Part shown: positions 3,001 to 6,000 of the stretch, piece by piece
Position numbering within the stretch: position 1 is the stretch's first letter
Layout: every line of letters begins with the position of its first letter
Origin: Escherichia coli
GTDB lineage: Bacteria > Pseudomonadota > Gammaproteobacteria > Enterobacterales > Enterobacteriaceae
Assembly (NCBI RefSeq): GCF_016903815.1
Contig: NZ_CP069973.1
Length of the DNA: 64,000 bases
Direction: 5' to 3' (one strand)
Position numbers: made by a program

Positions 3001-6000
3001 TCAGGAAAATATGGGACGTTTTATCAATCAGAGGAAATATGTTACAGTTCAGCTTTGTATCAAATGACGTTGTTATGACTTACGACGGTGACAGCGGAGA
3101 ACAAATAATTTGGGTTTGGGAGAGTTTAAATAAATTTCAAACAGTATGCATTTCACGCATTTTTAACTTTCAACTCCAGGACTTGAGAAACCCACCGTCA
3201 ACCGTTCAGGATTTTAATGATTATGAATATTCCTTTAATTTTGGCACGCTTAATAATGAATACATAACAGTTCCGGGACGGATTCTAAGCATTAATCGAG
3301 ATGTCCTTATACATAAGTCCATCAAGCTTGAAAGGAAAGTATTTGCGTCAGAACGCAACGTCTCCATTTTTGGTCGGCTTTCAAAACTACTCGATCACAC
3401 TAATCCCATCATCATCGGAGGAGATAAGTCGGAAGCTATACCAAAAAGCGTATTCCAGGAGTTGCAAAGTAAATTCCCCAACACAGGGGAACTGGATCGC
3501 TATGCTAATGCAAGGGTTCACGCTATTCTCGCAGGTTATCTTGATGGTATGAAAGATGCTCGCGAACGGTATGAACATTACCTAAACAGAAAAACAGTGA
3601 TCAGAAAAACCGACAAACTGGATTTAGAAGTTTTAAATAAGCTCGAAATTGAGAAATATACACTCATAAGAGACATTATCCAGGATGCGTTGAATAACAA
3701 AACTAACTTGTCTGAAGATGACTGGCAGAGCCTGATGATACCCTTCATCACATTACTTTTTCCAAAATATATCAAGGTCCTCGAGAAGGTTAAAATTTTC
3801 GACTATTACTCTAATCCTTCGGCTAAAACAAATCGGTTTATAGACATTGCACTGGTGGATGCAAACGGCAACCTTGATATCATCGAAGTCAAAAAGCCGT
3901 TTGATGATAAGATCCTTCGCAAGACGCCCTATCGCGACAACTATATTCCTACATCAGAACTTAGCGGCGGTATTATGCAGGCTGAAAAGTATATTTTTCA
4001 TTTATCTAAATGGGGTGTTAAGGGTGAAAAAGAGCTTACGAATGCCTACAAGAATTCTCTGCCAGCGGGAATGTGTATTCGTATATCTAACCCAAAAGCC
4101 ATCATCATTGTCGGGCGCGATCAGATAGCGAACGGTAACATGACCGACGGTCAGTTGCTTGATTTTGAGATAATCAAACGTAAGTACGCCAACATGATAG
4201 ACATATTGACGTACGACGACCTGTTGCGTCGACTTAATAATACGATTGAAGCATTGAAAGGTTGAATGTCCATGAGGTTCACACCCACAACGGGGAGCAG
4301 GTCACTTCCTATTGTTTGATTGACATACCATAACGTCTGCTTTTGGCTCAAAGCAGACTGTCTGATTTGATAGCTTTTGGGCTATGTAAATTGTCAGTTG
4401 AAAAATGAGTGAGTACAAATCAGGACGGGCGGGCGAGTTGCCCGCCTTTTCTTTAATCTGTTGTTTCATCCACTGACCAGCCAGGTCAAATAGCGTCTCA
4501 TGCTCTGCACAACAGAAAATAGTTGCACCCATTAACCACGGAGTTAAACGGATGAGCGACTATCATCATGGCGTGCAGGTGCTGGAGATTAACGACGGCA
4601 CCCGCGTCATTTCCACCGTATCCACGGCCATTGTCGGCATGGTCTGCACGGCCAGCGATGCGGATGCGGAAATCTTCCCCCTCAATAAACCGGTACTGAT
4701 TACCAATGTGCAGAGCGCAATTGCAAAGGCTGGTAAAAAAGGCACGCTGGCGGCATCGTTGCAGGCCATCGCCGACCAGTCAAAACCGGTCACCGTTGTC
4801 GTACGTGTGGAAGACGGCACCGGCGACGACGAGGAAACGAAACTCGCGCAGACCGTTTCCAATATCATCGGCACCACCGACGAAAACGGTCAGTACACCG
4901 GACTGAAAGCCCTGCTGGCGGCGGAGTCGGTAACCGGTGTTAAACCGCGTATTCTCGGCGTGCCGGGACTGGATACCAAAGAGGTGGCTGTTGCACTGGC
5001 ATCAGTCTGTCAGAAGCTGCGCGCTTTCGGGTATATCAGCGCATGGGGCTGTAAAACCATTTCCGAGGTGAAAGCCTACCGTCAGAATTTCAGCCAGCGT
5101 GAGCTGATGGTCATCTGGCCGGATTTCCTCGCATGGGATACGGTCACCAGTACCACCGCCACCGCGTATGCCACCGCCCGTGCGCTGGGGCTGCGCGCTA
5201 AAATCGACCAGGAGCAGGGCTGGCATAAAACGCTGTCCAATGTCGGGGTGAACGGTGTTACCGGCATCAGCGCCTCTGTATTCTGGGATTTGCAGGAGTC
5301 CGGTACTGATGCTGACCTGCTTAACGAGTCAGGCGTCACAACGCTGATTCGCCGTGACGGTTTCCGCTTCTGGGGTAACCGTACCTGCTCTGATGACCCG
5401 CTGTTCCTCTTTGAAAACTACACCCGCACCGCGCAGGTGATGGCCGACACGATGGCTGAGGCGCACATGTGGGCGGTGGACAAGCCCATCACCGCAACGC
5501 TGATTCGCGACATCGTTGACGGCATCAATGCCAAATTCCGTGAGCTGAAAACAAACGGCTATATCGTGGATGCGACCTGCTGGTTCAGCGAAGAATCCAA
5601 CGATGCGGAAACCCTCAAGGCCGGAAAACTGTATATCGACTACGACTATACACCGGTGCCTCCTCTTGAAAACCTGACCCTGCGCCAGCGTATTACCGAT
5701 AAATACCTGGCAAATCTGGTCACCTCGGTTAACAGCAATTAAGGAGCCTGACCGATGGCAATGCCGCGCAAACTCAAGTTAATGAACGTCTTTCTGAACG
5801 GCTACAGCTATCAGGGCGTCGCGAAGTCCGTCACGCTACCAAAACTGACCCGTAAGCTCGAAAACTATCGCGGTGCGGGGATGAACGGCAGCGCACCGGT
5901 AGACCTCGGCCTTGATGACGATGCGCTGTCAATGGAGTGGTCGCTCGGTGGCTTCCCGGATTCGGTTATCTGGGAGCTTTACGCCGCAACCGGTGTGGAT

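Follow-up and report, generated by a model that had tools for sequence, protein, structure and literature searches.

The 408-residue open reading frame in the tail region of a P2-like Escherichia coli prophage is almost certainly the E. coli Shedu nuclease (SduA), an innate immune nuclease that is carried by a prophage and works without a partner. It was examined within a 64,000-nt stretch of contig NZ_CP069973.1, hereafter the window. In profile searches, the PADLOC SduA model PDLC04067 spanned residues 1–407 of the gene product (E=1.4e-219) and was the best of 16 SduA models that matched in all, while the Pfam family SduA_C (PF14082, formerly DUF4263) aligned to residues 224–396 (E=7.5e-33, model positions 2–159 of 159). 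The PHROGs match was to a full-length family of unknown function, and a profile search of NCBIfam with the same product returned no match. Since PADLOC, Pfam, PHROGs, and the PDB all matched strongly, we attribute the NCBIfam miss to the content of that library rather than to novelty of the protein.

The closest protein of known structure is EcSduA from E. coli KTE10 (ELC07825.1; PDB 8PS4, 8PS5, and 8PS6; Loeff, Walter, Rosalen & Jinek, 10.1101/2023.08.10.552762). Both full-length entries, 8PS4 and 8PS5 (deposited as "Shedu effector protein"), match the window protein at 407 of 408 positions. The sole difference from the protein in the three entries is a serine at position 131 (S131) in the window in place of the proline (P131) in the structure, and the N-terminal 188 residues equal the crystallized N-terminal domain (8PS6) apart from S131. 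The two proteins share their length of 408 residues, their domains, and their functional residues. All 13 of the functional residues compared are kept (W25, R106, K116, R154, Y181, E226, Q230, Y256, K263, D269, E283, K285, and Q314), and the PD-(D/E)xK constellation of D269, E283, and K285, together with E226 and Q314, is intact at the EcSduA positions. A first-pass annotation of the window had described an open reading frame that ends in a nuclease-like motif; the motif is real, but it lies in the C-terminal half (D269...E283-x-K285) and not at the very end. The features of a type I Shedu that can be read from sequence were all found here, namely a DUF4263/SduA_C domain, the catalytic residues, a long N-terminal sensor region, and a single gene. 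No sequence evidence spoke against the identification as SduA.

The gene is also already known, for it matches a named and characterized defence protein, being one residue away from EcSduA and exact to a protein named in RefSeq. The identical protein sequence occurs on 762 contigs under the name "MULTISPECIES: Shedu immune nuclease family protein", compared with 409 contigs for the P131 allele, and ELC07825.1 falls in the 90% cluster of the window protein, from which it differs at S131P only. E. coli strain 7/2 (NZ_CP023820.1) and the window are 100% identical across the 50 kb that were compared, and in that strain the gene product bears the RefSeq accession WP_023148825.1 and the name "Shedu immune nuclease family protein". 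The first-pass annotation was right in kind, having proposed a single-gene anti-phage nuclease in the Z/fun hotspot of P2. Its description of the gene as an orphan and a candidate does not hold, given that PADLOC, Pfam, the PDB, and RefSeq all identify Shedu. It had added that a profile search should be run and that an exact match to a named defence protein would make the gene known rather than novel; the search returned such a match, one residue short of exact. The features discussed here are collected in Table 1.

Table 1. Features of the sduA locus, domains of its product, and cargos at the same slot in related phages. Positions are those of the window unless residues or a phage excerpt are named.
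Feature	Position	Strand	Details and basis
Tail fibre gene	195..2219		674 aa; upstream of the sduA ORF
Tail-fibre-assembly gene (G)	2221..2748		175 aa; upstream of the sduA ORF
Border inverted repeat, left arm	2801..2832		Lies in the left inverted repeat annotated by the depositor of AJ512677 (window 2721-2833)
Variable cargo cassette	2825..4330		~1.5 kb, ~40% GC; blastn breakpoints and GC
Candidate sigma-70 promoter of sduA	2903..2931	+	TTGGAT, 17-nt spacer, TAATAT; depositor annotation of AJ512677 (P2-EC31), mapped
Shine-Dalgarno-like AGAGGA	3027..3032	+	5–6 nt 5' of the sduA ATG; read from the sequence
sduA ORF	3039..4265	+	ATG start, 408 aa, intact and full length
76-aa ORF (rejected as a partner gene)	4302..4532	-	phrog_11095 (unknown function), 2e-50
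Border inverted repeat, right arm	4336..4367		Lies in the right inverted repeat annotated by the depositor of AJ512677 (window 4335-4425); hairpin-forming (4335-4358)
Strong intrinsic-terminator-like hairpin	4427..4447	+	9 pairs, 7 of them G-C, then a T-run
Tail sheath gene (FI)	4552..5742		Downstream of the sduA ORF
N-terminal DNA-end-sensing clamp domain	residues ~1-145		Limits per Loeff et al. (10.1101/2023.08.10.552762)
Helical linker	residues ~146-188/194		Limits per Loeff et al. (10.1101/2023.08.10.552762)
C-terminal DUF4263/SduA_C PD-(D/E)xK nuclease domain	residues ~195-408		Limits per Loeff et al. (10.1101/2023.08.10.552762)
P2 cargo	excerpt 865-1764		299 aa, fun/Z position; PADLOC: no match
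vB_EcoM-12474III cargo	excerpt 901-1983	-	360-aa SMEK-domain protein; opposite strand; PADLOC: weak Aga_REase-PNTD, 4e-18
P22H4 cargo	excerpt 842-1597	-	251-aa hypothetical protein; opposite strand; PADLOC: no match
P22H1 cargo	excerpt 919-1464		181-aa hypothetical protein; PADLOC: no match

Much of what the first-pass annotation had reported of the gene and its surroundings was borne out, including the exact coordinates and length of the open reading frame, its position between G and FI, its ribosome-binding site ahead of the ATG, and its AT-richness relative to its neighbors. The GC content of the ORF is 39.6%, compared with 48.4% for H and G together and 54.5% for window positions 4552-12000. 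Downstream of sduA come the sheath, tube, E/E', tape-measure, U, D, and ogr genes, and the whole is a standard P2 late arm. A consensus promoter scan requiring at least 9 of 12 matches yielded nothing on the plus strand ahead of the sduA ORF, and the only promoter candidate is the site annotated by the depositor of AJ512677, which is weak (7 of 12 consensus positions matched). In the lysogen, sduA is probably transcribed from this weak promoter of its own. No exact match to the Ogr-type late-promoter dyad TGT-N12-ACA was found between the cassette and FI. Three terminator-like hairpins were located on the plus strand 3' of sduA (4292-4310, 4335-4358, and 4427-4447), and the region as a whole contains seven against 1.6 expected. 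Hairpin terminators had been said to follow the gene, and they do; the strongest of them (4427-4447), however, lies outside the cargo, in P2 backbone sequence ahead of FI that is conserved among the P2-like phages compared.

We compared the locus with four P2-like phages by blastn. Homology to P2, vB_EcoM-12474III, P22H4, and P22H1 is lost at 2820-2836 and picked up again at 4331-4332, and these breakpoints delimit a cargo of about 1.5 kb; that homology breaks at the cassette borders upholds the earlier proposal of a P2-like variable cargo slot. Between the conserved G and FI flanks the four phages carry four different cargos. An imperfect 32-nt inverted repeat, 84% complementary, borders the cassette just inside the conserved flanks, and the computed repeat agrees with the one annotated by the depositor of AJ512677. 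The fun(Z) gene of P2 occupies the same G/FI insertion slot between the same conserved flanks, but its protein is unrelated to SduA (best BLASTP E=0.97) and, unlike SduA, has no PADLOC match. A query that included the flanks matched 1,627 of 5,426 complete E. coli genomes; at least 80% of the query was matched in 52, and these 52 genomes carry the Shedu cassette. The fun slot has been described as a second defence hotspot of P2-like phages, holding three systems (Vassallo et al., PMC9519451). The P2 hotspot of Rousset et al. 2022 (PMC9122126), who mention neither Shedu nor DUF4263, is A/Q (old/tin), so that the precedent for G/FI is Vassallo et al.

Two-component DUF4263 systems occur in E. 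coli (PMC12577705), and we therefore considered whether sduA might belong to a multi-gene system, either KELShedu-like or of the toxin-antitoxin type, with a small unannotated partner in its flanks. KELShedu is likewise an E. coli DUF4263 nuclease in anti-phage defence (Zhang et al. 2025, PMC12577705), but it depends on a second protein, KELA, works through abortive infection, and is NTP-regulated (PMC12577705). By contrast, the window has no partner gene: no gene for a KELA-like dsDNA-binding partner adjoins sduA on either side within the cassette. The 76-aa ORF on the minus strand downstream of sduA, the only neighboring ORF with a family match, is the one candidate that speaks for a hidden partner. 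We rejected it, as a frameshift interrupts it in P2, P22H4, and P22H1 and it overlaps the conserved terminator. It is, moreover, almost wholly backbone and not cargo, and RefSeq annotates no gene at this position in strain 7/2. What some annotators have called as a gene here is conserved non-coding DNA, and phrog_11095 is probably a family of such miscalled DNA. With no credible partner ORF in the flanks of sduA, in line with the first-pass annotation, and with EcSduA able to defend alone from a plasmid (10.1101/2023.08.10.552762), we consider a multi-gene system extremely improbable and retain the reading of sduA as a one-gene system.

EcSduA assembles as a dimer of dimers into a tetramer of 195 kDa, with a core of DUF4263 domains and two clamps built from the N-terminal domains (10.1101/2023.08.10.552762). 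Each clamp admits only a dsDNA end, which is stabilized once bound by W25, and the W25A variant has lost defence (10.1101/2023.08.10.552762). The DNA crosses three basic patches, with the contact residues R106/K116, R154/Y181, and Y256/K263, to reach the PD-(D/E)xK site, and alanine mutants show that the catalytic residues E226, D269, E283, K285, and Q314 are required (10.1101/2023.08.10.552762). The enzyme nicks the 5' strand approximately 13–14 nt from the end; in cells, it lowered transformation by linear fragments approximately 10-fold but left that by a circular plasmid unaffected (10.1101/2023.08.10.552762). Expressed alone from a plasmid, EcSduA (P131) reduced the plating of T2 and T6 more than 30,000-fold, and cells survived a multiplicity of infection (MOI) of 5, a direct and non-abortive protection (10.1101/2023.08.10.552762). 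T6 escapers had lost the UvsW helicase (10.1101/2023.08.10.552762), a loss which suggests that the target of EcSduA is to be sought among recombination-dependent linear intermediates. The isolated nuclease domain is toxic (10.1101/2023.08.10.552762), which gives the N-terminal domain a second role in holding it in check.

By its near-identity to the published protein, the SduA of the window would be a homotetramer with two clamps, each formed by a pair of N-terminal domains, that take only the free ends of linear dsDNA, with Trp25 steadying the end. The bound duplex would then run along a positively charged channel to the PD-(D/E)xK site (E226, D269, E283, K285, and Q314, with Mg2+), which would nick the 5' strand approximately 13–14 nt from the end and spare circular DNA. 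Phages with linear, recombination-dependent replication intermediates would be blocked, among them T2 and T6, and T4 in the case of the likely PD-T4-8 allele discussed below. The N-terminal domain would also restrain the otherwise toxic nuclease domain. The oligomer, the biochemistry, the phage range, and the uvsW escape are taken from the literature on alleles that lie one and three residues away.

Could the S131 allele instead have decayed or shifted, such that the substitution or poor native expression has cost it defence or changed its phage range? The single substitution relative to the studied protein does sit inside the N-terminal sensor domain, and the promoter, as noted above, is weak. 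The ORF is nevertheless intact and of full length, and all the mutationally defined residues are kept. S131 is, moreover, the allele on most contigs, the cassette is 100% conserved in the 20 top-ranked complete genomes, and residue 131 is absent from the contact and catalytic residues listed for EcSduA (10.1101/2023.08.10.552762). We regard decay or a shift as very unlikely, and the S131 allele probably behaves as the published protein does, in forming a tetramer, nicking DNA ends, and conferring phage resistance.

A second relative comes from an earlier line of work. PD-T4-8 is a DUF4263 system from strain ECOR31 with a 1227-nt ORF (RCP52534.1; Vassallo et al. 2022, PMC9519451), which was selected with T4 and validated in a low-copy vector under its native promoter (PMC9519451). 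According to the table coordinates of that study, the clone carried 257 nt upstream and 324 nt downstream of the ORF (PMC9519451); starting 257 nt 5' of the ATG, it would include the site at 2903-2931. In an older record, AJ512677 ("Bacteriophage P2-EC31 proviral Z-region, ORF1"), the DNA agrees with window positions 2719-4581 at 99% identity; its annotation comprises a left and a right inverted repeat, a -35/-10 pair, and a "putative lysogenic conversion protein". Relative to the window, one T is missing from a T-run at approximately position 1276 of the record (window 3994), and owing to this 1-nt deletion ORF1 is annotated as only 362 aa. As the PD-T4-8 ORF is listed as 1227 nt in ECOR31, the deletion probably reflects a sequencing error in AJ512677. 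With the deletion repaired, the ORF1 product differs from the window protein at three residues (T121N, S131P, and C346R). From the strain, the ORF length, and the domain, PD-T4-8 appears to be ORF1 of P2-EC31. It would then share with the window the 1227-nt ORF, the P2 G/FI slot, 99% DNA identity that extends into the flanks, the inverted repeats, and the promoter, and would differ in those three residues, as read from the repaired AJ512677.

PD-T4-8 has been placed in Type 1B Shedu (Gu et al., 10.1101/2023.08.10.552793). Published accounts of the outcome of infection conflict: according to Loeff et al., protection at high MOI was non-abortive, but Gu et al. cite PD-T4-8 as a system for which abortive infection has been proposed (10.1101/2023.08.10.552793). 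The Shedu of Bacillus cereus (Doron et al. 2018) resembles the window SduA in being a single-gene system with a C-terminal DUF4263 PD-(D/E)xK nuclease (Gu et al., 10.1101/2023.08.10.552793) and, as predicted for the window SduA, is a tetramer in which the N-terminal domain restrains toxicity (10.1101/2023.08.10.552793). However, its N-terminal sensor is of a class unrelated to that of the window SduA, and it is proposed to be activated by octamer assembly, as opposed to the end clamping of EcSduA (10.1101/2023.08.10.552793).

The first-pass annotation had also called sduA the only extra gene in the prophage arm. That is correct within the window, but the same prophage in strain 7/2 has additional cargo upstream of the window start. 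In that prophage, genes for HTH, reverse-transcriptase-family, and FRG-domain proteins lie between the replication endonuclease and portal genes, at the old/tin hotspot (excerpt 1223-4124), and a gene on the opposite strand, located between those for virion morphogenesis and baseplate V, encodes a 347-aa hypothetical protein (excerpt 13916-14959).

Ordinary E. coli chromosomal sequence takes over in the window at approximately 11.4 kb, starting with pflB-focA and reaching the elf fimbrial genes, where the compared record ends (window position 59888), and an Rfam scan of the whole 64 kb at gathering thresholds found no RNA family. We noted that ompF (window 45926..47003, minus strand) is present as two separate ORFs, one of 256 and one of 116 aa, that overlap at 46233-46276; in the identical strain 7/2, RefSeq annotates it as a frameshifted pseudogene. 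OmpF is a receptor for phages and colicins, and the split ompF may therefore be a receptor-loss resistance allele.

The DNA of P2 enters the cell in linear form with cohesive ends, and P2 replicates circle-to-circle. It is conceivable, although we think it improbable, that P2-like phages could for this reason tolerate a Shedu of their own, which could explain its carriage by P2 prophages, and that S131 might tune specificity or the choice between an abortive and a non-abortive outcome. The discovery value of the gene itself is small, since a structure, a mechanism, phage resistance (for near-identical alleles), and a correct RefSeq name already exist. Nevertheless, raw sequence alone sufficed to single out a genuine one-gene defence nuclease in the P2 Z/fun hotspot. 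As candidates for unexplored defence, the unmatched cargos at the G/FI slot (299, 251, and 181 aa) and the weakly matched SMEK protein are better than the Shedu gene.
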